Below, piece by piece: positions 541 to 48,947 of a stretch of DNA of 64,000 nucleotides. The position numbers and the translations under genes were made by a program. The notes beneath the pieces are model-generated. The model was not told where the DNA came from, did not search any database, and worked only from the letters and a program-made list of their open reading frames with translations. The stretch is from Pseudogymnoascus verrucosus (lineage: Eukaryota): the NCBI GenBank assembly GCA_001662655.1, contig KV460222.1. One strand, given 5' to 3'. Numbering within the stretch: the stretch's first letter is position 1; every line of letters begins with the position of its first letter.

Positions 541-3500
541 ATGGTTAGTGATATACCCAAGATGCTCCGACTTACGGATGTTGCCGTGGCTAGCAAGAAC
601 TTACCCCGCTTTAGTCTCTTAACCAGGTATACCCCGAGAACAATCCGGATGCTAGTAAAGCTGCCAAAGTCGAGTGAGTATGCCTCCTATAATGATTGGT
701 AGCCAATATACTAACAATCTGGTGTGTAGTATTATCTTAGTTCACGGCCTGAATCCCAAAAGTAAGGACGATGAAGCACATGCGTTGAATACCTGGACCG
801 AGAATGGCAGACTCTGGCCTAAGGACGATCTACCAAAGAGGCTCCCTGATGCACGAATATCTCTCTATGTATATGATTCATCAGCAGTTTATGGTGGTAG
901 CCAGGCAACTTTTGCCGACAAGGCAAATGAGCTCCTGGAGACCATTAGATGCGACCGGGAGGACTGGGAGGGGAGGCCTCTCATTCTCATGGGACATAGC
1001 CTCGGTGGTATTTTGATTGAGCAAGCCTTGATAAATGCTCGACAAAATGAGACCTATCAGCATATTTATGACGCAACGTATGATCTTATCTACCTGTAAT
1101 ACTTCTAAGTACTGACAGAGAACCCTAGGGCGTGCCTGGCCTTTTTCGGAACTCCCCATGAAGGTGGTTCAGGAGGGATGGTTACCGCGGGGAAGACAGC
1201 TGCAAATGTGGCTTTATGGCTAGGATTTCAAAAGGGGGACAACATTATTGAGACCTTGGACAAGGGTTCTATGTTCACGGATATCCTCAAAGACCACTTT
1301 CGGCAGCAATTTGAGAGTTACCGGATGGTATCTTTCTGGGGTGACAAAGACACAGTATGTTCTACCTCGCGTAATGAGTAACGGTGTAAGACCTCATAAT
1401 TGACTAAAATTTACTAATTGCCCCTTGACTTAGATTGTCTCAAGAGAGAGCTCTAAATTTGGGCTCGCTGGGGGTCGTGAGCGAATCGTTGAGTTGAAAG
1501 CAGATCATCACGGAGTTGCAGCTTTTGGCCACACTACGAAGGATGAAGGTAACCTGAAAAAGGTAACAAGTAATGTGAAATGGTTGTATGATGAGGCCCT
1601 GAAACTGGGTATGTTGGAATCACTCACCTCCCCTCCTAAGGGTATTGTGGCAGATCCTGACAAGGATGCTCTGCTCCGAAAGAGACTGGAAGCCCTTAGA
1701 AACTGATGAATTAGAGTAGTGTTGTCCTTTTTTATTAAGCTAGCGCTACTGAATTTAATTATTCATATGTGATAGATGTGCCCTAGAACTAATTTGGTTC
1801 TAGTTGACAAGATTCAGAGCCATCTTGAACACTCAAGGGTATGTACTACTTAGAGTTCTTAGCACCAACTTCGTCACTAACAGTGCAAACTATTAGGCAA
1901 ATCCTAGACTGCAACAAAACGGTATAGCATTCACAATCAATCTCATTTTACTATTTCTGATTACGAGGCAGCCATGCAAAAAACTCACTGCATCGTACCC
2001 TTCGAAAAGAACCATTGCTTTACCGGCCGTGAGTCAGAATTGACTCAATTGGAAGAAATGCTTTTTGCAGAGGATCAAACAATGAAGGTGGCTGTATGTG
2101 GGCTCGGAGGTGTAGGCAAGACGAGTCTAGTGATCGAGCTCGTTTATCGTATTAGAAAGAATCATGAGAACTGCTCAGTCCTCTGGATACCGGCTACTAA
2201 CCTTGAAAGTCTGCATCAAGCATATCTAGATGTCGCCTGTCAGCTCGGTATACGCGGGTGGGAAGAGGACTTGGCAGATGTAAAAGGACTTGTGCAAGAG
2301 TTCCTGAGCAGAGAAAGTGCTGGGCAGTGGCTAGTAGTTTTCGACAACGCTGACGACATTGATATGTGGGTTGGTACGCCGACGGAACAGGGAACTAAGC
2401 GTTTGATCGACTACTTGCCTACAAGTAAGCTCGGTTGCATCGTGTTCACGACACGCGATCGGAAGACAGCTGTCGAACTTGCACAGAAGAATGTGATGGA
2501 AGTGTCAGAGATGAGCGAAGACGTAGCTACAATGATGCTGCAAAATTGTCTCATTGATCCGGACCTGGTCAACAACAAAACTGACACGTCGAGTTTACTA
2601 AAAGAACTCATTTACCTCCCGCTCGCTATTGTCCAGGCCTCAGCATACATCAACAAGAACAGGATAACCTTCTCTGATTATCTATCCCTCCTAGCAGACC
2701 AAGAAGACGACGTGATTGACCTGCTTAACGAGGAGTTTGAGGACGACGGAAGATATCAGAATGTGAAGAACCCGGTAGCCACGACATGGCTAATCTCGTT
2801 TGAGCAGATCCGCCAACGCGATCCTCTTGCGGCAGAATATCTATCATTTATGGCTTGCATAGATTCGAAGGATATTCCACGGTCTTTGCTTCCTCGAGGC
2901 CAGTCCAGGAAGAAGGAGATGGAGGCAATTGGTACCCTTGACGCATACTCGTTTGTGACCAGGCGTCTGGCAAACGACGCACTTGATCTTCATCGGCTAG
3001 TTCATTTATCAACACGGAATTGGTTGAATTTGAGAAATGAATGGGATGACCGGGCAAATGCAGCTCTGCATCGGGTAGCATACATGTTCCCTCGGCCAAA
3101 ACATGAGAACAGGGCTCTTTGGATGAGCTATCAAATACATGCGCAGTGTGTTCTCACATCGACTAAAGATCGAGAGAAGGAATCTAAAGAATGGTATAGT
3201 TTAGCCTCACAGATTGGAGAATGCTGCCTAAGTACGGGTAAGTATCAAGAGTCTGAGAGCTGGATCCGCCAGACGCTCAAGCTCACGGAAGAGGTGCTTG
3301 GAAAGACGCACCCGGAAACGCTCGCGACTATGAGCAACCTCGCTCTAGTGCTTGATAGTCAGGGCAAATACACTGAAGCAGAGACCATGAACCGTCAGAC
3401 GCTTAAGCTCACAGAAGAGGTGCTTGGAAAGACGCACCCGGATACGCTCGTGACTATAAGCAACCTCGCTCTACTGCTTGATAGGCAGGGCAAATACGCT

Positions 3501-4133
3501 GAAGCAGAGACCATAAACCGCCAGACGCTTAAGCTTAGGGAAGAGGTGCTTGGAAAGATGCACCCGGAAACGCTCGCGACTATGAGCAACCTCGCTCTAG
3601 TGCTTGATAGGCAGGGCAAATACGCTGAAGCAGAGACCATAAACCGTCTGACGCTTAAGCTTAAGGAAGAGGTGCTTGGAAAGACGCACCCAGAAACGCT
3701 CGCGACTATGAACAACCTCGCTGCAGTGCTTAATAGTCAGGGCAAATACACTGAAGCAGAGACCATGAACCGTCAGACGCTTAAGCTCACAGAAGAGGTG
3801 CTTGGAAAGACGCACCCGGATACGCTCGTGACTATAAGCAACCTCGCTCTACTGCTTGATAGGCAGGGCAAATACGCTGAAGCAGAGACCATAAACCGCC
3901 AGACGCTTAAGCTTAAGGAAGAGGTGCTTGGAAAGACGCACCCGGAAACGCTCACGAGTGTTTTCTGTCTTGCCTATCTACTTCAAAACAAGAAGCAGTA
4001 TGAAGAAGCATCGATACTTTATGTAAGGGCTTGCACTGGCTATAAGTCATCGTTAGGCTCCGAACATCCAACCACGAAGGCCTGTGTAAACAGTTACTCT
4101 ACTATGCTTGATAATATTAAAGAGACTAATTAA
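541..4133 (+). CDS. fungal NLR: SesB-like alpha/beta-hydrolase - NB-ARC - TPR (NLR1)
   Basis: Hand-spliced in-frame model: 541-543, 615-673, 730-1077, 1129-1354, 1434-1608, 1804-1838, 1897-1921, 1972-4133, all GT..AG. Motifs: IILVHGLN, GHSLGG nucleophile elbow, FFGTPH, ADHH; P-loop GLGGVGKT, Walker B WLVVFDNADD, LHRLV; kinesin-light-chain-type TPRs (LGKTHPETL..MSNLA). Confidence 0.9.
3267..3955 (+). repeat. 126-bp (42-aa) near-identical TPR tandem repeats, about 5.5 units
   Basis: Recurring ...cagacgcttaagct....gaagaggtgcttggaaagacgcacccgga.acgctcg.gact... at a 126-bp period. Confidence 0.95.
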
Positions 4134-4388: not shown

Positions 4389-4428
4389 TTAATCGCGACT
4401 GGCACATTCGCGGTTGGGCCGGAACATA
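4389..4428 (-). mobile_element. solo DNA-transposon end
   Basis: 40 bp that are the exact reverse complement of 7561-7600; AT-rich sequence on its left (interior) side. Confidence 0.75.
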
Positions 4429-7560: not shown

Positions 7561-8041
7561 TATGTTCCGGCCCAACCGCGAATGTGCCAGTCGCGATTAA
7601 CACACATATTATCATATAACTCAACAGCATATAGATAGAACTTTATAAGATATAAGATATATATTATCTACTATATACAGTTTGTCTTTTAGGCTTTAAT
7701 TTTGAAAAATATAGTAGACTTTATGCTTATATAGTACCTTTTATAGCTTTTAAGGGTTCCTTTAGTTACACTTAAATCATCTAAATTTTAAGTAATATTA
7801 AAAATTCTAAGGAAGCAAAGTTGTAGAGAAGTGTCTAAATTACATATCTCCCTATATATATAAATCTATTAAAGCACTTATTAATAAGTTATATTAAGTT
7901 TTGTTTAAAGAAGGCATTTTTATTCGCGACTGGGCCAGTGTGGGTCGGCCCAGTCACGAATGCCAAAATTTGTATGGGGAAATTCGTGGCTGGGCCGGCC
8001 CATTCGCGAATATGACTTATTCGCGACTGGGCCGGAACATT
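7561..8041. mobile_element. non-autonomous TIR element (MITE-like), AT-rich interior
   Basis: TIRs atgttccggcccaaccgcgaat (7562-7583) versus reverse complement of 8019-8040 atgttccggcccagtcgcgaat (20/22); subterminal ttcgcgactgggcc repeats and palindromes at 7923-8033; TA-rich interior 7610-7920. Confidence 0.75.
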
Positions 8042-9154
8042 TATGATAGCTAATGCATGTGGTGAGCTACTGTGTTGGATAGCTGAGTTTGTATAATGAG
8101 AATTGGATAGAATTGGAAACACGCTTGGACACTAGGAATATTACCCTTTAACGACCCACATTTGATAAGTGGTGAGAGGCGATAGCTTCACAGACTCTAT
8201 AAAGCTATCGTCTCTCACAAGGCTCTGTGAATCTGAATGTTATAGAGAGTGACGACCGTCGTTATCAAATTATGGTTTGAAGTGTGGCTCAATCGGCTTA
8301 CGTAAGGTTGCAAGGATAGTGCAGCACAGTCGTTAGGAACTGTGGCTGGTGAAGTTGCGCGACGCAGCTCGTAAACTCCACCAGTCAAACATCGCAGTCA
8401 AACATCGTAACTTCCAAAAAATGTACGTATGTAGGCGCTAAACTCGGCTCCTTTCTGACGAGTTCCCTTTATTGAGCATGTTAAGTTCCACGATTCTTTG
8501 TCATGATTACCAATTAAGTTTCCAATTCTAGATATCCTGACATGCTAGCTCTTACTCAGCCCAGTTTATAGTTGTAGTTCGCTGACCTTGTCAGTCAATT
8601 CGGTCATAGCGACGCGGGGTCGGTTATAGGAGGTCCGAATCTATACCAACCACAACGACTCTGTTCCGAACACGTGAAATATTCGTAAAATACGAGGGAT
8701 CGTAGACGTTACTATTTTATAGTCTAGTGATAAGAGCAAGCGTTAACCAAGGCTTGTACTTGAACTGCCGGGACGTGGAGGGCGTCTAGCCGGAACAGTG
8801 AGCACAACAGTTGCTAATCGCCACCTTACACCTCCAGGTTAGTAGATGAGGGGTTAGTGATCCTCCGGCTAGCCCTACGAATGTGACCCTGTTGGATACT
8901 ACCTACCAAGCTTCAGCTTCAGCTTCAGCCACTCAATTGGCGGTGAATCCTGAAGGCGTCTAATACCTCATCCCGCTGGCTAGGTGGCACTACTAAGCTT
9001 ATGGTGGGCCTTAGGGCCGCGCATCCTTCCCCGTGAGAGCACCTCGGGGAGCAATGGTCCCAGAGTTAGAGTATACGTGGGGGACGCATAAATACAAGCT
9101 TTGGACCCCTCCATAATGTTCTAGATCAGCTATTTCTCTCTGGATACTTAAATC

Positions 9155-28662: not shown

Positions 28663-29183
28663 CTTGAGGTAGATGCAGGCTTTGAGGCTGCTCGTGGACA
28701 AAGGAACTAGTAGTAAGAACAAACTAGAATAGTTGGAGTAGTATAAGATGTGGATATAAAGATTGATTTTGGCAGGTCCATGCCAATGAATTAAAGGGGA
28801 TAAGAGAAGGGTGCGTGAGACGGCTGGGTTCGGATAATTAACCGACGAAGACCAGTGATTGATTCATGTGAGGATCTTAAAGAACAGAGATTGAGATATC
28901 TCTCGCCTGGGTTCGCGCCTGTGGGTCGCGGAGGCTAGGTGGGTGAATTTGTATCGAGTTGGAAAGAACCGGGGCGGGCGCTTCAAGCGTAGCTCAGGGG
29001 GTCTATTAGAGGCGCACGCCAGGAGAGTAACGGTACCATCTACTTGCTTCTTGAGAAAATCTGAATTATAATAGCAAAAATGTTTCGCCTATAACTCCTG
29101 AATTCACCTCGAAGTCAGCCAAACCTATATGCCAAGCTAATGGCTGTCCCAACTCCTCTCATTTTGCAAATATCCTCCAAACA

Positions 29184-30424
29184 TTAACGGGCATATGAGC
29201 TGATATAATACTTTGCGATGTTAGAAACAGTATCCTCATTTATGCCAGGTTAAACTCACCGTGAGGACGGATTCTTTTGCACCGGGGTCTTCATAGTTCG
29301 TCAGGTATACGTAAAGGATCAACGCATGGTTGTCCACAAAACCTGCAATATATCAAAGTCAGTATACATTCCAATTCATCATCATACAACAACATACAAG
29401 CAATAACCTTCCCACCCAGCCTTCCCACACTAAGAACCCGACTCCAATCCTTCCCATCAATTCTCACCGTCGCCCACGCATCCGGCCCCGCAGCCCTCAT
29501 CTTCTCCGTCGGCAAATCATCCACATCCCCGTCGATCTGATTCGGCTCCAAATCCGGATTCGTCAAATCATTCCACACGCTCTCAATATTCAGCGCATCC
29601 GTCGTAATACTCAGCTTCAAACTCCCATGCATATTCGCGCTCAGCTCCAACTTCGGCGTATTAGCAGTACTATTCACAGCCGCCGCTGTATTGGTCGTCG
29701 TCGCGAATGCGAGCTTTGTGAACCGGTCCGAGATGGCTTTGAGTTGCAGCAGCGGCGGGAGGAGGATATGCACATCCGAGTCGCGCACTTTGGGCTCGTG
29801 GATCCCTTCTACGCCTTCGGGGGAGAGGACACGGATGGGGATTTCCTGGGTGACGATTGTTTCACGCTCGGCGGCACTGCGGGCGTCGAGACTCTCTTCG
29901 TGGAAGTCGTCGTCGGCGAAGGGGTCGTCATCGCGGCGGTTGCGGAGGAAGCCATTGCTGTTCCCGGCGCTGACGGTGTTGGTTATGATTGTCAGGGAGA
30001 GGATCGCATCACCATCTCTCTTTGTGAGGCGCAGAGATGCAGATGTGGCGTTTTCTGCGGATCTGAGGGCTGTTTGGAGGGGTGCCAGGGGAAGCTCGAT
30101 ATTGATGGTGTTGTTCTCGATGCGCGACTGGACCGAGTACTCGTAGAATAGAGAGTCAATTGAGATACAGCTGCATCCATATTAGTTGTCTCTCTCTGCT
30201 ATGTAGATTTGAGGAATCATACGCCCAGACCTGTGATCCCTGCTCGGGGATTATAGTGAACCGCACATTTTCATCGTCCAGCCTGACCCAGGCAATCTTC
30301 CCCAGGGTCGCCAGAGACGCCGTTAACTCTAGAAATCGCGTCAGAAGAGGTACGTAGCTAAATTCAGGACAGCATAATTACTAGAGAATGTCTTTATATT
30401 CCTTAGCGAGGTTTTAAACCTCAT
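29184..30424 (-). CDS. HUS1: 9-1-1 checkpoint clamp subunit Hus1/Mec3
   Basis: Spliced: MRFKTSLRNIKTFS, KIAWVRLDDENVRFTIIPEQGSQVWA, NNTINIELPL, ITQEIPIRVL-like, DVHILLPPLLQLKAISDRFTKL, ..YYISSYAR*. Confidence 0.93.
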
Positions 30425-30969
30425 TGTCACGGCTAAGGGGGACGATGAGTCTAGAGGTGACGTTGGCCACAGCCGCGATAGGCGCGATATTGTTAAAGAG
30501 CCGAAACAGGCAGCGACACCATCACAAAAAGTTCCAGAGCAAACATATCATCAAAGAAATTAAACTACAATAATTCTCACAGCCTGTATAAATCAGCAGG
30601 GTCCATAGTTTAGAACTTTATAAATCATCCCCTGCACATTATAGTTCCGTACCTGACTTTCCAAGTACATGACTTTGCGACCACATGACTTTGCTGGCAC
30701 ATGGACGATAGCAGGCTACTGTCTCACTCCTCCTCCAGCACATTTCACTCACATCCAAAATCACCACAAAGTAAAAAATATTAATATAATCATTCCAATG
30801 TAAATTTCATTAACTAATTCAGACACCTCTAATGTCCTCGCAAACACCTTAAAAGCATAACTAAGAACCCCCAATGCCCATCCTCGCATATGCAGAACAG
30901 TAAATCATGTAAATTAGATCTCTCTCATCTCCCTTCAAAGCCAAAATGGCTTGTGTGCCATATCATTGC

Positions 30970-31864
30970 TTACAGAGCGTAAACTGGGTTGGGGCCGATG
31001 TTGGGGAAGTCGGTGACGAGGTTAACATCGTTGAATCCGAAGAAGGCATCAACCTGTTTTGGGACATTGACAACAGTCATAACAGCATATCCATACTGGT
31101 CGTTGTAACCCCACGAGATGACCCAGTCGACCTGCTTCTGGCAGACGGCGGTGTAGAAGCTCTGGGTTGGGGCACCCTCCTGGGTCAGGTAGCAGTTGGT
31201 CTTCTCAGAACCGTCGTTCTGGTTGATCTGGAAGGAGTAGTTGCAGGTAGCGATGTTGCTGGTTTGGCAGGCTGGTGCGCGTCAGTCTTTTGTCCAGCAG
31301 CTTCATAGTAGGATTGAAGGGATGGGGTTAGAACTTACTCCTGTGAAGTCCCTCAACAGTCCAGGCTCCAAGGTTAGCTGCGGCATCGCGGCCGATAACA
31401 GCTGCACCGGCAGCCTTCTTCTTCTCCCAGGTCCCGACAACCAGAGAAGGCGAAGTGTGATCTGGGGTCACAACCTTGCCATCAGCGAGCTCAGCAGCTG
31501 TGTATCCAAAGAAGGCGTTCAGCGAGGTCTCGCGGTTAACTGGGACAATCACGAAGAAGTTTCCAGGCTGGTCGTACCCGACGTTGACATACACGGGTGA
31601 GTTAGCCGCGCAGTGCAAGTTGGAGGGGGAACTCCAGCGGGCCTTGCGGGTGCTGTCGGCGATATCGGCGAAGTCGCAGGCGTCGACGCGGCCGGAGTTG
31701 TTGTCCTTGATCTTGAACTTGTAGTTACAGGTGTTGGCGCTATCGTTGCAGGTGCGCACGAAGCCCTGGAGAGTCCAAGTGCCTTCGGCGCGGGCTGAGT
31801 TAACGGCCGGGGCGGCAGCGGCAAAGGTAGCGCCAGCGAGGGCGAGGATGAAGGAGTAGTGCAT
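30970..31864 (-). CDS. small secreted cysteine-containing protein with two tandem homologous domains
   Basis: Signal peptide MHYSFILALAGATFAAAAP; intron 31338-31272; domain 1 WTLQGFVRTC..CNYKF..AFFGY; domain 2 WTVEGLHRTC..CNYSF..AFFGF. Confidence 0.85.
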
Positions 31865-33465
31865 TTTGAAGGTGGTGGTTTGGGTGGTTGTTTGACGGCG
31901 AGTGTGTGTGTGAGAGAGACTGATGCTTGAGATGAGACTTTGAATGCTTGATGCAGGGAAAAAACACCTCAACACCGGACAAGCAGCTCGTCTTTATAGG
32001 AAACCCTCCCATCACCAGGCCACCGACCGAAACATTCTCCTTCGGGCCAAACCTCGAATCCCCTCGTCCCCAAACGAGCTCCCCTCCCCCCCCAAGCCTC
32101 GTAACCGGACAGCAGCATCTATTCTATCCCCGTCCCACCACGCAGGGCAATGATCATCCCCTCAATACGAGGCTCCGTCCCCCCGGCCCCCCTCCCCACA
32201 CACGCTCATTCGCTGCCCTACGCCCCCAGCTACGCCGCCCCGAGCTCCCGCCAGCCACATCAGCAAGCGGGCGCAGTGGATCAGCGCTGCCATGGCTGCT
32301 AGCATCGTCGTAACCAAGCACTGACACTGCCAGTCAATGCAATCAAGAATTCTTCACTGCCGGTTGGATAGCTCATGACGTCCCAAGCGAACGTTGCATC
32401 GTCTCCGCTCCCCGCTCGTTGGCACTCGTATCCGCCGATCAGCTGCCTAGCTGCCTACCCTTCCCAGCTCGCGTATGCATCTGCTTGTCTTACGTACGCC
32501 GAGTCCAGCTCCCTTCGCATTCTCCCATCCCCCTGCCCTTTTCTTTCCCTCTCCATTCTCCGTCGGCGACAGCTGGGTTCGTACACCCCGCGTCCGTATC
32601 TGTCGTGCCCCATCCCCCACAACCACCACCGGCTACCTTACGCCTTCCGCGCGGCACGGGAACGGCGTCAGACGGCCCCATCGTCGGCTTAGGTGAGAGA
32701 GAACCAGAAAAATAAGCTTCCGCCTTCCGTGACGTAGCGCGATCGGCGCGATCAGCGTTGAGTACGAGATGGTCGCTGTCAACGCCCATCTAAGGTGGTT
32801 TAGCGTCGGAGGCACCAGGGGAGATCTTAACCATATGAGGGTCTGGGATGGATTTAGAAATACTTGGCCACGAATGAGGGCGGTCGGTTGGTGTAATGTG
32901 GGGATGTGGGGATCGGTGGTTGCTATATTGGGCGTGTCACGGGAATACGGGTAGATTTTTTGTCGGGGGTTGGGTTGGTGATGATTTTTCGAGAACCGAA
33001 TGAATGCATGAATGAACTCTGATTGTGCGTTTATTGGTTACCCTACGGAACGGAGAAGGGTATTGTTTTCAAACTGTGGATGAGATGCTGATATGAGCTG
33101 AGATGCGGCTGCTTTGTTGTTGGTCGGTGTTGTCTGTAGCTGTGAGACACGTACTATACTATACGTCAGCGCTATATCGTTATTTTTGGCAATCTCAAAT
33201 TTACTTTCTCTTATTTTTTACCGTATCCCATTTCCTATGGTCGACAATGTTGCATTCACCGCTGCTCAGCCAGGTATCACGTCGCATCGAACCGTTCACG
33301 GCGTTTACGAGGTGAGGCTGAAGATTATTTCTATTTCCATAATTTGATATTTGATATGCAATAACCTAACCATACGCAACAAACTTCCTACGTATCCCGT
33401 CTCCACACCTGCCAAGGACTCGCTGCATCTCTCTCCGCTCAGGAGGTGAGGCTGAGGAAATACCA

Positions 33466-33637
33466 CGGATTTGATATATCGGCCAATATTTGCCCATGCT
33501 GCCAAACGGCAAAAATAAATAACAAAATAACATACAACAGTACCTAAAGAGATCCCAGAATTTGGTGTATCGCCCTATATTTGCCTTTGCAGAAGAGCAA
33601 AAAATAAATAGCAAACAAAAAAAACATTACAACAGTG
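33466..33637. repeat. about 92-bp tandem duplication containing the 5S 3' terminus, T-run terminator and downstream flank
   Basis: ttgatatatcggccaatatttgcc..caaaaataaataacaaaataacatacaacagt versus ttggtgtatcgccctatatttgcc..caaaaaataaatagcaaac..acattacaacagt. Confidence 0.7.
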
Positions 33638-33687
33638 GGTATTCGCTGGTGGTCACCCACCCAACTACTAATCCACCGATCTCAAGC
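33624..33687 (-). pseudogene. 5S rRNA 3'-half fragment
   Basis: Identical to 38887-38949 apart from one inserted base; similarity stops abruptly after ctcaagc. Confidence 0.93.
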
Positions 33688-33707
33688 AATCCTCTAGATA
33701 ATAGTTA

Positions 33708-33918
33708 AATCGGTGCCATCCAGCCTAGCGGGTGAGCCTCGCCGCCCTTACCCTTATTTTGTGATCGCGACCATCTACCTTGACCACCTAAAAGTGGGTC
33801 CATTTTTGACAACGCGTCGCACCGCGACAGTGGACGCCCACGGGTAAGTAGGGTGAGTGGGTGAGCATGCTAAGTAAGGTGAGCAGGGTGAGCAGGGTGT
33901 GACGGCGTAATGGGCACC
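33708..33918. mobile_element. MITE-like element or transposon end with GGGTGAG subterminal repeats
   Basis: ggtgccat (33712) and atgggcacc (33910-33918) inverted ends; repeated gggtgag(ca) at 33730 and 33851-33898; no clear target-site duplication. Confidence 0.45.
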
Positions 33919-34187
33919 AACCTTCCAACTTCCAATCAATTGTCAACCACGATAATGGCGAGACGTAGGAGCCTCAGGTTGCTACTAAGAGACGGGGCAA
34001 AGGGCAGTGGGAGGGACTTGAAGTTGCTCACGGAGAATATGAAGCAGATCCGGCAATTGATTCAGGAGAGCACGACTCTGTAAGCTGGCGCAGAAGCAAA
34101 GGTGATAGAACAGCAAGGTCAGACAAAGCGCATTGGTATTCAATACAAATCGAGACGAATGGCAGATAAATTGCAACCAGGGCAGAT

Positions 34188-37100
34188 CTATAACTCCGAC
34201 ACATCCCTCATAAAAGTAATACTACCCCACCGTAGACTCACCTTGCCCTCCTTCAAATCCTCCAACTCCTCCGCCATTTCTTTCTCCACAACACCAAACA
34301 GTCTTTTTGCCTCGACTGTAGTCGGATCATCGTCTCCCAATTCTTCACTCGCCATCCTCGCAAACATCCGAATGACATACCCCGCTTCCTCCAGCGCTCC
34401 CTGCCTGAGCAATTCTTTCCCCATCCGCAATCCTTCCTGACGTCGCATCACCGCAGGCGTACTTCCATACAGCAACTTGAACATTTCCTCTTTCTTTTCT
34501 TTGTACGCTTCTCCGACCGCTTCATCATAGCAACAAGGCTGTCGGTGGAAGATCTCGAGTAGCAGGGTAGCGTGTACAGTGCTCAAGCTCTTCGGCCCAA
34601 ACACCTTTTCCGTCGTCTCCAAAATCCGTACGAGGTACGCCTTGGCTTCGCCATGGGTAGCATGATCTTGCAGAAGAAGCATCACCTTCATTTTGCGCAT
34701 CCACACATACATGTCCTTGTAATGCACCCGTGCAATGTCAGCTTCAGAGAGATCGACGGAAGGATACATCAGTTTGTCTACCAGGGCCGTTGCTTCTTCA
34801 GTTTCCCCTTGCTTCATGAGTAGCCGAAAGAGCTCGAATGATGCACACTCATACTTCAGATCGCCTGGGGTGTGCTGAGCTATAGTTTGGCGGAAGAAAA
34901 CCATTGTGCTTTGGATATTGCCGGCCAGTCGGTCGCGTGCAGCTAGAACCTGCTGGGATTCAAGGGCTTCTGGCATTGGAGTCCCTCGGAAATGACAGAC
35001 GATATAGGTCAGTAGCCACATTAGAAATGCCGACACCCGAGACTTCCAAGTACTTTCGAGTGGCAGATGGCTGATGCGATAATACAATGAGCTCAACTCT
35101 GGCTTTCCACGCCCAACGTATGCCGCAGCCACCGCTCTTGTGAGCTCAGAAAGTAGTGGAGTGAGATTAGGGCTCGGGTTTCTGTAGATCTCCTTTAAAC
35201 AAGACTGGTCGAAAGTCGTGGCAGGCCGCGTTCCATCTTCGATTTGCTTGAGTGCTGCCATTGCCGATGGCGTCATTTGTTTCTTGAGATACTGTCTTAT
35301 ACACAAGTCATGCACCTCGTCTTCAAAATTGGAGTACGCTCCACAGATCCCCCGCACAGTCGCAGCAACTCCCAGCGTTATGGCCGTATATTCCGTATCC
35401 TCGGTATTTTCCAAACTGTCCATGACCATTATTGAGTACATATGTAGCTCCTGCATTAATCCAGCATCTCTCCACATAACAATATGCGAATGCATTAGAA
35501 AGGTGAGGCAGAACCATATCTCTGTCGACGGGAGGCCATTTTCTGGCTGCTTTAACCTATCTTTCACTGTTTCTAAGACGTGCTTGACGTGAGAGAAATG
35601 AGATCTCTCAAATGCATTCGCTTTTGTAAGCGTAAAGAGAGTATATGAAGAGAAATGAATCCATCTCCATTGATCGACCTGAGAAAGCCTCGCTTGCACA
35701 CATTGATGGACGAGCCCATGCATCGAGATAAATGCGCCTTGTTCCGTCCTGCGAATCTGAATGAGAGAATAGGAAAGTAAAACCTTTTTCGCGTCATCAA
35801 AATCATCTGAATAGTCTTGATTCCAGTATTTGTGCATCTCTGTCACATGCTTTGAGACTAAGAGGCTTTCAGGTACAGCTGTCCCATCCAAAGCGCTTAT
35901 CCAAGCAAGTAGATATTGTGCTTTAATGTTACGCTTGATAATGGCTGTTCGGGTCACCATATAAGTTGCCATCATGGATGATTTATGGCGACTAAAACGT
36001 GGAGATTCTTCGAGGACTTCCTTTTTTCTCTTCTCGAATTCCATCAAATAGTCCTCGGGCCTGGATGCCATGTCGTTGTTATGCACATAAGCACCTGCAT
36101 GCTCAACAGCCAGAGCAAGGCGCCCAAGCTTGTTTACGATCTCGGTACAGACGGTCATTTGCTCCTTGGTCGGGTTTGCGATGCAGGCTTTCTGAAGGAA
36201 CAGCGCTTCAGCATCTTCCTTTTTCATTTCTCCGAGCTCAATTGTAGCAGGACAAAAATTAGCTGCACCGCGATCCTGACTAGTGAGTATGATATGGCCC
36301 TTATTTCCATGAGGTATATACTCTTCAATGCTGACTCCATCGAGGTCGTCTGCATTGTCAATAATAAGAAGCCAATCCCCATTCTCTTGTTTTCGAAGCC
36401 AAGATTTGACAGCCTCGATTGCTGCAACCTGAGCAGCAACGTCTGTTTCAGCCAGTTCCTTTCCAACAGCTTCGGATAGACCAAGGTGGCTCGCAATATC
36501 AGCGTAACCTCTCCGAATTTCGGAAGTGTCTTTGGCATTGACAAAGAAGATCGCAGAGAAATCTTGACTGTACTGCAAAGCATAGTTGACCGCAACTTCG
36601 GTTTTGCCAGCGCCACCAATTCCCCAGATAACGGCTTGGCGTCGTTTTACTGAATTTTCCGCCGTCATGTACTGTCGCAGCTTTGCAAGCTCCTCTTGCC
36701 GGCCGGTGAAGTATGAGTTCGACATATCTTTGAGCATATTAATGGTGATTTTCTTGACCTTGCCTGTGATCGATGTTTTTGGTTAGTAGGTTCCACCAAG
36801 CAGTACCAGTGGCGTATTACCTGACACAACTGAGAAGGTATTAGCAAAATTAGATCAATCAATGGGCCAGACGAAAATAGGACGAATTCATTATGTTTCT
36901 CAAATACAGAAATTAGAGAACCGTACCCCTTTTCTGTTCATCATCTGTCTCCCACCGATGGTCTATTTTGATCGCCGCATCTTCCATCATTAGCAGAAGA
37001 TGCCCAGATATTTTCTCATAACCATTATCGTCCCGTGACAGAAATCTGACCATATTTCGATGGTCAGCCATGATTGCCACTGCTTCTCCATCAGCAACTC

Positions 37101-38145
37101 CCGGAACCATTGCAGAGCCTATCGGTACAATCTGCGGCTCTTGTTAGAAGACTATATTAGCCCAGAGATCTTGCCTCTTACTATCATTGACTTGCCAAAT
37201 GCAGTCGGCGTCGGCAGAGTCTCGTAAGCAAATTTCGTCGTAAACTGGTTACTTATGGTCGCAAACTGGCCCAACTGTTGATGCAGCAGCTGTGAATCCC
37301 TTTCCAGATTTTTGATAAATTTGGAATCAGCTTTGACGAATATGGACGCTATGTCGATGATTGCCCTTCCCAATGCGACTCCGTTGCCGCCTTGATGAGG
37401 AGTGCCCATGAAGACTATTCCATAAGTCGAGAGTGCGATTGCCTTGTGGTCTTCGAGTGCACCGTTCCTCGCAGCATCTGAATGGATCAAAGCCTAGACA
37501 AATAAGTATCTCCCTGCAAACTAATGTGAGGGAAATGGAACCTACGCTTTTCACAACGATACCTCCCAAGCTGTGAGCGATGAAAATGATAGGACGTCTC
37601 TGCGTCTACATCGGCGTTAACAATATCGATGCTGAGTTGGATAAGGTTAATACTTTTGTAAGCCGTCTTTTTAGACACAAATCGCTGATGAGGGTCCTTC
37701 CATGGTCATATATATGCTGCTGGTCAATGCCGTGGGTACCACCAAACACATCTGCGTTGTATCCCCAACTAAAGATCCTCGCATTTGGGAGATCAGTGGG
37801 AAGTAGATCTCGCAGCCAAAGAACATCATTTGCGGCAGTCCATGTCTTCTCTCGGTGGCCATTGAGTCCATGAAGAGCCACGATGCTCAATCCAATATTT
37901 AGCACGCGGTTTCAAGACACCAAGGTGAGGACGACTTACTCAACGATGGGGTCAGCTCCTTCAGCAAAGATCGCGAGTCCGAGCGATTTTGTTTCCGAGA
38001 GCGACTGCGAAATGACAGTCGACTTGGAATATTTGGATGATCGAGGGATGATCTGCCAAGGAAGCTTAGCAGCCGCTCATTCTGTAGCGCAATCTCAGCT
38101 TACTCGAGAGATACCGTCGAAGAGGTTTTTAGCAGGTCTCTCCAT
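34188..38145 (-). CDS. fungal NLR: SesB-like alpha/beta-hydrolase - NB-ARC - degenerate TPR-like region (NLR2)
   Basis: Hand-spliced in frame: MERPAKNLFDGISR|..ADPIVD|IVALHGLNG..|AHSLGG|FMGTPH|ADHRNM|9-nt exon 36829-36821|36763-34188. P-loop GIGGAGKT, WLLIIDNADD, MHGLV. Confidence 0.88.
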
Positions 38146-38737
38146 CGTGGATCTCAATAGTGCGTGAGATCGCGACGCGATGAAAGAGCCAAACGGAGAA
38201 TGACAGACCAATATTCCTGAAGACCTACCGCCCTGACCTACCTGGACGCAAGATAAGCGCCCGAGGTCGCTTATGTTGACCTGGCCGCAGTCGCCAGACC
38301 AGGTAGAAAGCGGATTGGATACCAGTCAGTGCCACTCTCTCAGGTGCCAAGACGTCGTCGTCTGCAGCCCTGTGCAATATTTCTTGACATGGGTAAACTC
38401 AACCTGGTATGTGACCGATACCCCATCGCTAAGACGTTTCGTACAGAGCTAACATCTGTGCAGTTGAAGTGTCGCAATATGCAAAGTCAAGCTCGAAGCC
38501 TCTAATTGAAGAATCTGGTCAGTCCTCGGAAATGATATTTACCATCAGACGATAATAACTCCAAAACACCCCCTGCGAGGGTTAATACACAACATGTCGG
38601 TAATAAGCCCTGCTATAGATGAAGTATATATTGCAGGGGCGCACTCATCAGATCACCCAGAAAAAGAGACGTGCTTCGGTGTTGATACGAAAATGACGCG
38701 AAAGTGACGCCAAACTGACACGAAAATGTTGCTTCGC

Positions 38738-38802
38738 CTCACTCACCCTGCTCGCCCTGCTCACCCTTCGCCTCACCCTTCAGGCGGCAATGGGCCCCGA
38801 TT
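38738..38802 (-). mobile_element. transposon-end-like sequence related to 33708-33918
   Basis: ctcaccctgct repeats (reverse complement of agcagggtgag) ending atgggccccgatt; its reverse complement aatcggggcccat resembles aatcggtgccat at 33708. Confidence 0.45.
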
Positions 38803-38886
38803 CCGCGCTATGCCTATTAGCACGATTGAGGCTATCGTCTAGGTATTTAGAAAACAAAATCAAAAATATCAAAAAATAGCAAAAAA

Positions 38887-39005
38887 ACATACAACAGTGG
38901 GTATTCGCTGGTGGTCACCCACCCAACTACTAATCCACCGATCTCAAGCTTGTGTATGGCAGAGCGGACGGGATGCCCAATTCTCTTGAGTCTATGGTCG
39001 TATGT
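38887..39005 (-). rRNA. 5S rRNA gene (dispersed, apparently intact)
   Basis: 119 nt ACATACGACCATAG..CATCCCGTCCGCTC..TTAGTAGTTGGGTGGGTGACCACCAGCGAATAC..GTTGTATGT; complementary termini; followed by a T-run terminator. Confidence 0.97.
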
Positions 39006-39131
39006 AACAGTTTCTCTCTTAATGGGATATAAGTATACCATTATGCGCTAAGGTATATAGATACTTTAGTTACAGTCCTCTTCTACCTTGCACCTTTCCT
39101 ATAAAAGCAGCTAAAAAAGAGAAAAGCAAAA

Positions 39132-39159
39132 ACATACAATAGTAGATATTCGCTAGTAG
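39132..39159 (-). pseudogene. 5S rRNA 3'-terminal fragment, RIP-like mutated
   Basis: acatacaatagtagatattcgctagtag versus acatacaacagtgggtattcgctggtgg: 5 differences, all C>T or G>A; T-run downstream. Confidence 0.75.
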
Positions 39160-39487
39160 GATGGTTGGTTAGCTTAGTGCTTTTACTTGTATTGCCTCTT
39201 CTAGCTCTAAAATCTACATATAGGCCTAGAGTGCACGTAACCCTCTAGGCTGACACTAGAGCCTCCTTACAACTAAATAAACCTGAAAATCAGCGTATAT
39301 AGCTGTGCTTTGCTCATCTCTCCCCTACCTCTCGGCGCAACCAACGCCTAAGTTCTACAGAAACTCACCCTGGATCCTAGATAGACCGACCTCAACTATG
39401 GCGGCACCGTAGACGAGAGGGTCTTCGAACTATGCACAATATTGCTATCGGCTTGGCCGGAGAGAAGAAGGACCTGCGCAAGAGCGA

Positions 39488-40552
39488 TCAGGACAGGCTC
39501 GAGCTCAACACCAAGCGCGATTGGATTGAGGAGGCTGCTGAGCTCGGTATTCGTGGAGCAGCCGCTCGCTGTTGTTCCAGCGCTGTTGAAGCAAACTCTG
39601 CAATCACGTTGTCAGGTTCTCGGCTGTAGTCAATCGTGATGGCACATAACACGGAAGCCGGAAACAACCCGAGCAACCCGTAGACCTTGTCATGAGGAGA
39701 TGAGCAATTCCCACATTGTGCAAGAAGCTTCAGCTCCCGGATGAAAAGCGTCGTTTAGTGAACTTTCTATGTCACCTGGCTCTAGTGTCCTCCAAAGTGT
39801 AATTAATGCTAGGAGGTCCAATTTCGGCCTCAGCTCCTCTAGGACTGTCTAGACTCGGAATGGGTGACGAGAATATCGCCTACAGCTTGAAGAGTCGATA
39901 AGTAGAACACAGACTCTCCCTAATGTACGGTCGATGTCGTAGGGCTGACTGTCAGCTCCTGGATAATCCATAGTCGAGACCAGTACTCCTTCCGAAACAT
40001 GAACGACAACTCTACCCGGACTATATCGCGTAAATGCAGCCTGCCAAATCCCAGTTCATCGTTATCGTCGGAATCTGCGCAGTTGTATTGGTCAAACACT
40101 AGTTCATCGACATCCTCTACTAATTCCTTAAGCTGTTCTTCTTCATCCTCTGCGGCTCCCTAGCTGCGATCCCGGGCCCTAAGAAGCTCCTCTAGAGCGC
40201 CCCTGCCATATTTTCTAAAGATCACCTCGCAAAGAACGAGTCCTTCCCCCGGTTTGTGCAGCCCAAGAATCTTCAGGTCCTCGTGTTCGTTCGTCCAGGC
40301 TATAACGGAAAAAGCCCGCCCAAATATATTCTTCACACGTATCACGTGGCTATTCCGGTCAACGATGTCGGCCTAGTTGATACACAGGGCGTCCGCCAAG
40401 ACTTTCATACCGAGTTTGCATTCGAGAGTCTCCCGTAAGTCCCCCAGAGCCGCCTCTAGATGCTTACTCACAGCCGTGGCAATACCGTCCAGGAAAATTG
40501 TGGCCTTCTCCCCCGCGTAGTCTCCCCATGTATAGCTCAGGCAGGTGTAATC
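39488..40552 (-). pseudogene. HET-domain (het-6-like) heterokaryon-incompatibility pseudogene
   Basis: YTCLSYTWG, ADALCIN*AD (TAG at 40373-40375), YWSRLWIIQEL, CSSPHDKVYGLLGL, IDYS; several stops and frameshifts. Confidence 0.88.
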
Positions 40553-41577
40553 ACAGACAATGCGGGGTAGCTAGGGACGGAGTGAGCTAATGACGCGGGA
40601 ATGGGTCTCAGAACATTACAAGTCCATGTGAGTGAGCCCTAGCAAATATCTGTTGCTAGTATTTTTTGTTTTGCTGTGACTTTGCTTTGGCTGTGACAAA
40701 GGAAGATGGGTCAGTGTGTGTGTGTCGATGTGCTTGTTTAGCCACAGACTAAGAAGGACTGTTTTGAAGTAGGGGGTTGAAGATACTAATGAGATCATTT
40801 CGTAAGTGATAAGAAATTATGTTGAGGTTTGCTAAGATTCCTACCTCGAAAATGTGATGTTGGAGAGATGTATGAGTGTCTAGCTATGGGTCTAGACTCT
40901 ATCCAAGGAGAATCTCAGATAGGTACAAGCATACACCAATTCTGCACGAAAACGGATGTGCCAAGTCTAAGCTTCGCGTTGAAGGCGAGAGCTTGTAGTA
41001 TTGCTGTTTGGTATGCTCCTTGATGGCCATAAAAAGATATTCTAGACGTTAGAGGGGGAAACAAGAGAAAACGTAAAATTTGTGTAAAAAGCCAGAGATT
41101 GTTCTATCTCTGACTGTGAACTATTTGCCTAGGATGTATTTGTGGCTTTTAAATCGATGATTCGATTCTAGGCGAAGGAAGGAGGTTGAGCTGATGATGA
41201 GAAGAGACAGAGGATGTTCTGAGAATAAGAGATTCAATACCAGGGATAGGCGCACTAACAAAACTACATAAGTTGAAATCAGCGTATATTTTGGGACTCC
41301 GGCTGATTGAACATCAGGTATTAATTGGGAGATAATTATACTAAATAGGTGCAGCAATACATGCTATTCTCTCGCCACTCTTCTGGAATCTCGCGGAAAC
41401 GACCACGGAGTCGGCGTGAGCAGAAGTCGACAAACTCCGAAACACATATAACTTTAAATATTAGGGCCAATGGACCGAGTTCATTTATGTACTTCAGCAG
41501 TTATTGCACTCTGTAGATGCAACAATCTGTGGGATACCCTCCTTTAGATAACCATCGATGTAAGCTTTTCCAAAACA

Positions 41578-42605
41578 TTATAACTTTGAGTGTGCTCCAG
41601 AACAAAGTCTTGCACCACCATCCACAGAGATATCTTCGCCGTTTCTGAAGGTTTGTGTTAGCTTTATAAAAGGAATGGCTCCTGGCGTTACTTACATATA
41701 ACTTCCTGCAGGGGAGGCCAAATATACCATCACACCAGCAATATCTTCTGGAATGCCCAATCTCTTCCTAGGATTTGAAGCATTTAATTCCTCCTCCCCT
41801 CCTAACTTCTCAATGAGACCAGCCGCAAGCTTACTCGGGAAGAAACCTGGTGCGACAACATTAGTAGTGATATTGCGAGGTCCGAGTTCGACCGCAAGAT
41901 TTCGTCCCAAATGCTAAATACTTAGTCAGTACTCGCATCCGCAGAAGGATACTTTGGATATACTTACATGTGCAGCAGCCTTGGAGACTGAATACATAAT
42001 CGTGCCATTCTCTCCAACATGAGGGACGTTGACACCAGCCGTCGAGCTGACAATGATAACTCTGCTAGGATCTCTCCGCGTCCCAGCAGCCTCTAACAAT
42101 GGCAAGGATTTCTGCACCAAAGTGAATACTCCTCGAACATTCAAATCTAATATCTTGACACTACTCGCATCAGGCGCATCCTCGAATTTTGAACCCCAGG
42201 TCGCTCCCGCATTCGGGACCAGAATGTCCAATTTCCCTTCAGTCTTCTTGATCTTCTCAACCAACGCAATAATTTCGTTCGTGTTCGCTACATTGGCAGC
42301 AATGCCGACCGCAGATCCACTGATCCCCGGAAGAGCGTTGAGTTTTGCAACGGCTTGATCGATGCCATGCTCACCCCCAGCCTTACGCGCGGTGATGATC
42401 ACCCGGGAAGCGCCAGCTTGGAGAAATGCTGTTGCAGTGTGAAGGCCAAGACCGCGGGAGCCTACCTTGAATGTCAGCTGGAAACTCGGCCTCCCTCACC
42501 TAAAATTAAAAGGGTACAGCCAATAAATGTAGACATACCACCAGTGATGAGCGCAACTTTACCGTCGAGGCGGAACAGTTTATTGAAATCCTGGAATTGG
42601 GACAT
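41578..42605 (-). CDS. short-chain dehydrogenase/reductase, C-terminal PTS1 (-SKL)
   Basis: LDGKVALITG|GSRGLG, NAG, YSVSK catalytic motif, APGFFPS, VDGG; 3 introns; ends AHSKL*. Confidence 0.92.
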
Positions 42606-42794
42606 GATAATGCTAGCTGTGTGCCTCTGGTGGTCCGTTTTGGAGTTGTGGGTGATGTATACTTAGAGTATGGCGGGCAAATCAACAGTCAATTGAAGGT
42701 TCTAGCACAGAGGAAATATCCAAGTTGGAAGAATTGTATTTCTGTGACCTTGAGGGTAAACGAACCCCGAAATACGCCCGATTACTTGGAGTTA

Positions 42795-42897
42795 CCTCGG
42801 AAATGATTAGGCGATGCCTACCGTATTATAGCCACGGCTCGACGCTTTCCGCGCCAAAACATAACCTTTGGACCTTTGGACCTTTGGCTAGCCGAGG
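42795..42897. promoter_or_regulatory. two CCGAGG (FarA/FarB-type) sites in the SDR/CoA-ligase divergent promoter
   Basis: cctcgg 42795-42800 and ccgagg 42892-42897. Confidence 0.5.
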
Positions 42898-43016
42898 CTG
42901 ACCAGCGCAAGGCTGTGGATATCTATGTGTACATAGTTGTCATGATAACCAAGTAACAATATTCTTTTGTACCTAATTTCTTTCCATTCGTGCACGTTAA
43001 TTTCATCCTCATCAAG

Positions 43017-48238: not shown

Positions 48239-48763
48239 GCGGTTGTATTTATACACAACAACTCCTTATTCGCGTCAGCCCGTGCGTGTCTGTGTGTACA
48301 GAGTAGCCAATGATCCATCCCCATTTGTACATACATTTATAGGGATTTAATAGAGGAGTCCCTTCTATTGAATGAATTGCGTATAATTATTCAGTAAACA
48401 TATACAAGTTATGCGGATACCGAACTTTGCTTCCTCTAACCTAAAGCGTTTGTCACGACTGTTAGCGATTCGTTAGCTGAAGAATTTAAGACAGATTAGG
48501 GCTAATCAGAGCCTTAGCTTCCCCCAGAGTGCCCTAGATCTAGCCACTAACTACATACTAGCGAAATCGGCCCAGTCTAGACAGATGTTCCATGAATCTT
48601 CAAGAGCCCCTTACCACTTCCATCTGGCCGGGACCTAGCCTTGGTACTTGCATTACGCTGCCACTCGGCTCCCCGCTTCCCCGCTTCCCCAAGCTCAGGT
48701 CCCACCCATCCGCTTTGTTCTCCCCTTCCCTAACAATTTACACCACGTCGCGCCGTCTCGTCC

Positions 48764-48947
48764 CTTCCCTCCTCTGTGCTTCTTCTTCTGTCTCCGTCTC
48801 AACCTCCATTTTCGTGCAGCCTCGCCCCTTCCCTCCTCTGTGCTTCTTCTTCCGTCTCCGTCTCAACCTCCATTTTCGTGCAGCCTCCTTCCCTCCTCTG
48901 TGCTTCTTCTTCCGTCTCCGTCTCAACCTCCATTTTCGTGCAGCCTC
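48764..48947 (+). repeat. 60-bp pyrimidine-rich tandem repeat x3
   Basis: Units 48764-48823, 48828-48887, 48888-48947; units 2 and 3 identical, unit 1 differs at one base. Confidence 0.95.

Follow-up and report, generated by a model that had tools for sequence, protein, structure and literature searches.

How did an intact non-self-recognition gene come to lie between a complete 5S ribosomal RNA (rRNA) gene and a second, detached 3' half of such a gene? The question is raised by a 64,000-nucleotide (nt) stretch of contig KV460222.1 (assembly GCA_001662655.1) from a Pseudogymnoascus species, hereafter the window, in which an insert of 5.2 kb carries one intact NOD-like receptor (NLR) gene, NLR2 (38145-34188, minus strand), as the sole gene between the 5S 3' half and the full 5S gene. 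A preliminary description of the window had likened this order to the attL/attR geometry of bacterial islands that restore the RNA gene into which they integrate, and had proposed that repeated 5S-targeted integrations, or recombination between 5S copies, delivered NLR and HET genes to the site. Having compared the window with contigs of related organisms, we hold it to be about an even chance that a cargo-carrying mobile element left the 5.2 kb behind, as a remnant or as a miniature derivative, and that this element belonged to a family that inserts site-specifically at nt 57-61 of Pseudogymnoascus 5S genes. The link of NLR2 to 5S is not due to chance and, judged from the junctions in the relatives, the event at 5S is insertion by a mobile family.

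Both 5S copies that frame the insert lie on the minus strand. The full gene at 38886-39005 is real (given as 38887-39005 in the preliminary description) and matches Rfam RF00001 over model positions 1-120 with 74.2 bits against a threshold of 38 (E 7.7e-14). Its 3' half (nt 57-120) recurs at 33624-33687, where nt 57-116 (33687-33628) are identical to the full gene at 60/60 positions and one additional base follows, after which the match continues to nt 120 at 33624; Rfam gives this half a weak match (33624-33712, 27.6 bits).

The sequences that abut these 5S copies on the side of the insert are themselves repeated in related genomes. We aligned contigs of four related organisms (X2, X6, X7 and X9; 4 of the 20 listed sequencing runs) to positions 29000-43000 of the window; as these are short-read contigs that break at repeats, and contigs were counted from the listed joints only, all contig counts given below are rough. 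Two stretches, 33628-33899 and 38703-38844, are represented by many distinct contigs in 4/4 relatives, and the NLR2 interior is covered once in each. A C>T variant at 33818 occurs in 4, 6, 13 and 5 distinct contigs of X2, X6, X7 and X9, respectively. Summed contig depth, which is not a copy number, is 795.7 over 33670-34136 in X2 versus 53.8 in the NLR2 interior, is likewise raised in X6, X7 and X9, and in the multicopy bins amounts to several-fold to 26-fold the interior depth. We refer to the terminus that abuts the 5S stump as E-left (33688-33899; many distinct contigs in 4/4 relatives) and to the second multicopy terminus, whose outer end points toward the intact 5S gene, as E-right (38703-38844; raised summed depth in the relatives). 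The inner part of E-left (33843-33907) is a (GGTGAGCAG)n run, and E-right contains a (CACCCTGCT)n run at 38735-38790 that is inverted relative to it. The inverted repeat between these two runs extends over 22 nt at 95%, with a local score of 44 versus 20.0 ± 2.2 in 200 shuffles. A terminal inverted repeat (TIR) seen by eye between 33688-33860 and 38780-38885 was discarded as not significant (score 17 versus 15.0 ± 2.3 in 300 shuffles).

The contig joints place both termini at one position within the 5S gene. In all four relatives E-right (38827-38844) is joined to 38944-38946, that is, to 5S nt 60-62, from where the sequence runs on to nt 1; such joints are present in at least 5, 6, 7 and 5 contigs (X2, X6, X7 and X9, respectively), with 6-22 variable letters in between that mostly end in ..ACG. 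At least 12, 6, 5 and 13 further contigs start at 38945/6 and are preceded by unrelated letters; for comparison, distinct 5S upstream flanks were found in at least 21-28 contigs per genome. On these counts, a large share of the assembled 5S copies in the relatives appear to be cut at the nt 57-61 site. E-left in the relatives follows a 5S stump of nt 57-120, as it does in the window. Because E-right meets nt 60-62 and E-left meets nt 57-120, each junction type represents one side of insertions at a common 5S site: together they correspond to the two halves of a single 5S target (nt 1-61 and nt 57-120) that overlap by 5 nt, GCTTG, and at the level of the family we find 5S-internal insertion with a short 5S-derived direct repeat. 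Since the nt 57-61 breakpoint and E-left recur in the relatives, the 64-nt half at 33624-33687 represents the distal stump of a 5S gene that was cut at the usual site of the family. The earlier proposal of 5S-targeted insertion by a mobile family is therefore borne out by the recurrence of the nt 57 breakpoint in many 5S copies of four relatives, with the same multicopy flank each time.

A metagenome contig (L004, one of 120 loci fetched) carries the same left side, with a 5S stump of nt 57-120 and about 146 nt of E-left before a different interior; its identity to the window is 85% over 217 nt, up to about 33833. As L004 turns into unrelated sequence after about 146 nt of E-left, the interior behind this terminus varies. 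The stretches 1-40 and 2880-2921 of L004 resemble sequencing adapters, so that its ends and perhaps its continuity need care. An open reading frame (ORF) beyond E-left in L004 had been taken by eye for a P450 N-terminus, a label that we dropped when Pfam returned no match.

How does NLR2 relate to this family? Both termini face outward around NLR2, which lies on the inner side of each, and because of this orientation NLR2 is topologically inside an element of the E family. NLR2 is intact, consists of four coding blocks and has the NLR architecture of effector, P-loop NTPase and C-terminal repeats: Pfam on a 1196-aa orthologue identified a DUF676 serine-esterase N-terminus (E 2.4e-4), a P-loop NTPase (AAA_22/AAA_16), DUF7779 (E 4e-10) and a weak TPR_19 match, and the same domains were found on the ORF of the window. 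When annotated orthologues were compared by tblastn, all exons were present, with 4 mismatches over 863 aa to the P. verrucosus orthologue (99.5%) and 90.8-98.9% identity over 846-858 aa to the orthologues in six further named strains; at 90% identity or above, NLR2 is present in 7 named strains.

We would describe the 5.2 kb as a Starship-like NLR cassette that sits at a 5S site, has decayed and has no captain; it is of a known kind, and we do not call it a Starship. The E family as a whole is probably Starship-like too. In the mechanism that we propose, members of the family would be moved in trans by the DUF3435 tyrosine recombinase (captain) of full-length relatives, and the cassette would have arrived at this 5S gene in a common ancestor of several species and would no longer be mobile. 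The intact 5S gene beside E-right would then be secondary rather than an att-like restoration, either because a break where 5S meets the element was repaired with nt 62-120 and some 36 nt of flank copied from elsewhere among the 5S genes, or because a small tandem 5S array lost one 5' half.

Several observations weigh against a mobile origin of the cassette. First, none of the 53 ORFs of at least 150 aa in the window matches DUF3435 or another recombinase or integrase, in agreement with the preliminary description, which had seen no recombinase there; Pfam detected no recombinase in the read-through frames of 33688-34188 and 38146-38886 either, and nowhere did we find a link from the E termini to a captain. 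Second, shuffle-tested alignment revealed no TIR at the E termini apart from the inverted simple-repeat run. Third, the right junction of the window copy reads E-right, 36-nt flank, full 5S gene, in place of the expected 5S nt 1-61, and it lacks GCTTG, such that the target repeat is not present at both junctions. Fourth, in X6 and X9 NLR2 exists without adjacent E termini. Fifth, no empty site was seen: the flanks differ in X6, X7 and X9, and no contig bridges one. Finally, the evidence from the relatives comes from short-read contigs that break at repeats, and from the joints listed for them.

The 36-nt flank at the right junction (38850-38885, minus strand) is the T-rich downstream flank of the intact 5S gene as read from the sequence, and occupies the place at which other family copies directly have 5S nt 61. 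Only its first ~15 nt are common to 5 contigs of X6, which have loose ends at 38871. The likeness of the two T-rich flanks was considered as proof of a long target duplication and rejected as weak, as several other 5S copies share the first ~15 nt and L004 also has a similar motif.

Two shorter 5S pieces accompany the two framing copies. Blastn-short within the window placed nt 108-120 at 33541-33529 (13 nt, exact, E 0.087) and nt 97-120 at 39154-39131 (24 nt, 87.5%, E 0.34). Neither match is significant taken singly; we regard the two pieces as credible because both stop exactly at nt 120, have the same 5S orientation and are followed by a T-run. The four same-orientation 5S 3' ends of the preliminary description, each with its T-run, are confirmed by Rfam, blastn-short and alignment; blastn-short found no further 5S piece longer than 11 nt in the window, and Rfam at its E-value threshold found nothing except 5S over 33300-39400. 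The 13-nt piece belongs to a tandem duplication of flank with a spacing of 91 nt, recognizable as a direct repeat of 33469-33499 and 33560-33590 (81% over 31 nt). The two units of about 91 nt (33469-33650, minus strand) each comprise the last 5S bases, a T-run and about 60 nt of downstream flank, with the left unit bearing the 13-nt 5S 3' end (33529-33541, minus strand), and a contig of X2, the closest of the four relatives, spans the region up to 33646. The other piece, a decayed 5S 3' end with T-run (39131-39159, minus strand) located 126 nt upstream of the intact gene, differs from 5S at 4 of 26 aligned nt, each difference being C>T or G>A, and is also present in contigs of X2 (38983-39203) and X6 (38953-43000). 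We infer that the 12-13-nt piece is the product of the 91-nt local tandem duplication and that the 24-28-nt piece is an older stump, worn by transitions of the repeat-induced point mutation (RIP) type. To judge from the 91-nt duplication and from the old stump upstream of the intact gene, local 5S duplications have occurred at this locus. With one fragment arising from local duplication and another being an old decayed stump common to relatives, a separate integration need not be invoked for each of the three fragments.

Is the arrangement recent? NLR2 is single-copy in 4/4 relatives and, by locus tag, is adjacent to a short-chain dehydrogenase/reductase (SDR) gene in P. verrucosus (04328/04329) and in sp. 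24MN13 (01312/01313); in VKM F-103 and F-4515 NLR2 and the SDR gene are on different short-read contigs, which is uninformative either way. As NLR2 is intact, single-copy in four relatives and beside the same SDR gene in two other named species, we consider the insertion old. On the same grounds a recent delivery of NLR2 is not borne out, and what stands of the suggested delivery of NLR and HET genes to the 5S site is that NLR2 and a HET-domain pseudogene do sit there. The contigs of X2 reproduce the layout in three parts: 29000-33646 (left flank to stump), 33676-38703 (stump, E-left, NLR2 and E-right) and 38983 onward (5S and right flank). The spacer from the NLR2 upstream region to E-right (38351-38702) is common only to X2 among the four relatives: X2 runs to 38703, whereas the contigs of X6, X7 and X9 end their match at 38351. 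X6 matches only 33900-38351 and X9 only 34106-38351, each continuing for 1-2.6 kb unlike the window on both sides, and left-flank contigs of X7 and X9 continue unlike it after 33464 and 32954, respectively. The presence of NLR2 without adjacent E termini in X6 and X9 would fit a longer element there and, equally, a resident gene.

Divergence was then compared between the NLR2 block and its flanks, with stretches of zero cover (X6, 29000-33202; X7, 39274-43000) not used as evidence, as a hole proves nothing. In X2 the differences amount to 30/5028 nt in the NLR2 block, 35/4647 in the left flank and 43/3455 in the right flank; in X6 to 92/4452 in the block and 103/4048 in the right flank, with no cover of the left; and in X9 to 149/4246 in the block, 124/1405 and 213/1565 in the left flank and 140/2449 in the right. 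X7 differs at only 49/4529 nt in the block versus 71/1085, 168/1872 and 114/1276 in the left flank (right flank, no cover). At the level of these alignments, the contrast in X7 hints that the NLR2 block was exchanged between lineages, with paralogy or selection as alternatives; it agrees with the exchange of small fragments described in Pseudogymnoascus (PMC4438637).

The strongest competitor, which we take seriously but rate at only about half the weight of a mobile cassette, is that NLR2 is an old resident rather than cargo. The 5S pieces would then reflect the birth-and-death turnover of 5S genes, dispersed or in tandem, and E-left and E-right would be leftovers of insertions that subsequently had their interior replaced or rearranged around NLR2. 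A resident gene agrees with the conservation of NLR2 as a single copy beside the same SDR gene in other species, with its occurrence apart from E termini in X6 and X9, and with the local tandem duplication and old stump at the locus; moreover, filamentous fungi frequently carry truncated 5S pseudogenes (Rooney and Ward 2005, cited by PMC5555474). On the other hand, a chance arrangement does not predict termini that face outward around NLR2, the 3' half breaks exactly at the site of the family, and the match of X6 ends at 33899/33900, which is the inner edge of E-left.

A restoring integration comes next, and we consider it unlikely. Bacterial genomic islands and integrative and conjugative elements in tRNA genes display an intact RNA gene, the island and a direct repeat of the 3' part of the gene. 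By analogy, the unit would carry 5S nt 57/62-120 and the 36-nt flank at its E-right end, and a crossover within the GCTTG core would regenerate a complete 5S gene, with the native 3' half displaced. The geometry fits exactly, from the intact gene through the 36-nt flank, E-right, NLR2 and E-left to an identical 3' half (60/60), and the crossover core coincides with the 5-nt overlap of the family. However, among the joints listed (at least 5, 6, 7 and 5 contigs), E-right and nt 60-62 are separated by 6-22 letters that include no 5S 3' half; the ORFs of the window include no integrase; and no second junction of 5S 3' end, flank and E-right was found in the window or in the 120 metagenome loci. 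The order of intact gene, insert and 3' half in the attL/attR model is present in this copy and is absent from the listed joints of the other copies, in which E-right stands directly on nt 1-61 of a disrupted gene. Judged from these joints, gene restoration does not appear to be the habit of the family. The window shares the layout of the bacterial islands, but it has no adjacent integrase and the other copies listed do not restore their target, and on this comparison the likeness is probably secondary. A bolder version, in which a captain-less cassette of about 5 kb with its own 5S 3' half and terminator rebuilt 5S upon integration and moved between Pseudogymnoascus lineages, strikes us as slightly less likely again; movement between lineages would explain why the NLR2 block is diverged by about 1% and the flanks by 6-9% in one relative, and the restoring reading, if true, would provide a eukaryotic counterpart of tRNA-restoring islands.

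That the duplicated 5S pieces are an assembly artefact, 5S genes and E termini being repeats at which short-read assemblies break or mis-join, is very improbable, because the contigs of a different organism, X2, independently show the complete layout, which also marks the arrangement as old, and because L004 reproduces the stump/E-left junction.

Returning to a mobile cassette, we asked which known systems it resembles. According to PMC11162782, PMC9156397 and PMC12153272, Starships target 5S at no fewer than five internal sites, fragment the gene, carry NLRs and form hotspots where 5S copies cluster. The supplement of PMC11162782, in the portion used, records 5-33 captain genes in each Pseudogymnoascus genome and a single delimited Pseudogymnoascus element, of 28.6 kb and with no recorded repeat. 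The 5S-targeting Starships (Voyager and the Enterprise/Osiris and Arwing families) resemble the window in site-specific insertion within 5S and a short 5S-derived direct repeat, and they have variable cargo, often NLRs, and ends conserved within a lineage; Pseudogymnoascus, moreover, is rich in captains. By contrast, the unit of the window measures 5.2 kb, holds one gene and is without a DUF3435 captain, so that it has neither the large size nor the captain of a Starship, and it has an intact 5S gene at one end in place of a 5' stump. The window family also has its 5-nt overlap at nt 57-61, whereas Voyager inserts 20 bp from the 5S 5' end. At the Starship hotspot on chromosome 3 of Aspergillus fumigatus, which is enriched in 5S genes (PMC12153272), 5S copies and stumps similarly mark repeated structural change between conserved flanks; several Starships of 47-152 kb segregate there, while the window has one small fixed cassette and a HET pseudogene, with no segregating empty site seen.

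The truncated 5S pseudogenes of filamentous fungi resemble the window family in being cut at a common internal position and continuing into a repeated non-5S block. In A. nidulans, 5S pseudogenes that consist of a 5' half are reportedly followed by such a repeated block. These pseudogenes were described without an element interpretation, whereas the window presents both halves and both element ends around a gene.

The surroundings of the insert contain further signs of change. To its left lie an unannotated stretch and then Hus1, a 2EXR protein and a Vps51-like gene; within this unannotated, GC-rich stretch, left of the 5S pieces, an X7 contig that aligns at 32005-32189 has 160 nt in reverse orientation and so carries a small inversion with respect to the window. 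To the right, past the 5S gene, follow a HET-domain pseudogene, the SDR gene and a run of metabolic genes. The HET pseudogene (39665-40573, minus strand; Pfam HET PF06985, E 1.5e-13 on the read-through frame) has no start codon after the preceding stop and is disrupted by 10 in-frame stops between the two HET motifs (7 TAG, 2 TAA and 1 TGA); that 9 of the 10 are TAG or TAA suggests RIP-type decay. The right-flank match of X9 begins at 40552, beside the start of the HET domain. The genes at 42000-63500 encode an SDR, an AMP-binding enzyme, a flavin monooxygenase, a fungal transcription factor, an aldehyde dehydrogenase, a zinc alcohol dehydrogenase, AtuA, an esterase, an acyl-CoA dehydrogenase and a PRISE reductase, and look like a catabolic or secondary-metabolite cluster beside a variable interval. 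Upstream of a fungal transcription-factor gene, at 48763-48947, a CT-rich unit of 61 nt is present three times in tandem (98% identical).

At the far left of the window, a second NLR (722-4133) combines NB-ARC/NACHT with seven TPR_10 repeats, has no 5S fragment nearby and shows weak similarity (32%) of its upstream region to the esterase N-terminus of NLR2; its TPR part is a 126-nt tandem array (3236-4039). Next to it, a segment of 3.1 kb is bounded by a perfect 40-nt inverted repeat (4389-4428 and 7561-7600), of which a further, degenerate arm is located at 8019-8064. The segment 4389-7600 has the appearance of a TIR transposon beside which a miniature copy lies; Pfam returned no match in its six read-through frames.

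Taken together, we would class the locus with the known 5S-targeting cargo elements, as a small and fixed member that lacks a recombinase and lies in a structurally unstable interval. It adds no new principle, as Starships that target 5S and carry NLRs have been published before, and so have hotspots rich in 5S. What is new is that the ends of the insert are multicopy and 5S-specific in related genomes. In Pseudogymnoascus a large share of assembled 5S copies appear cut at one position, and the window offers a compact, concrete case of a non-self-recognition gene framed by the ends of a 5S-specific mobile family. The two terminal sequences and the 5-nt target core are markers that could be used to find full-length elements and their recombinase. 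Should the uneven divergence of the NLR2 block prove robust, the exchange of small fragments described in Pseudogymnoascus (PMC4438637) would be linked to a specific vehicle.

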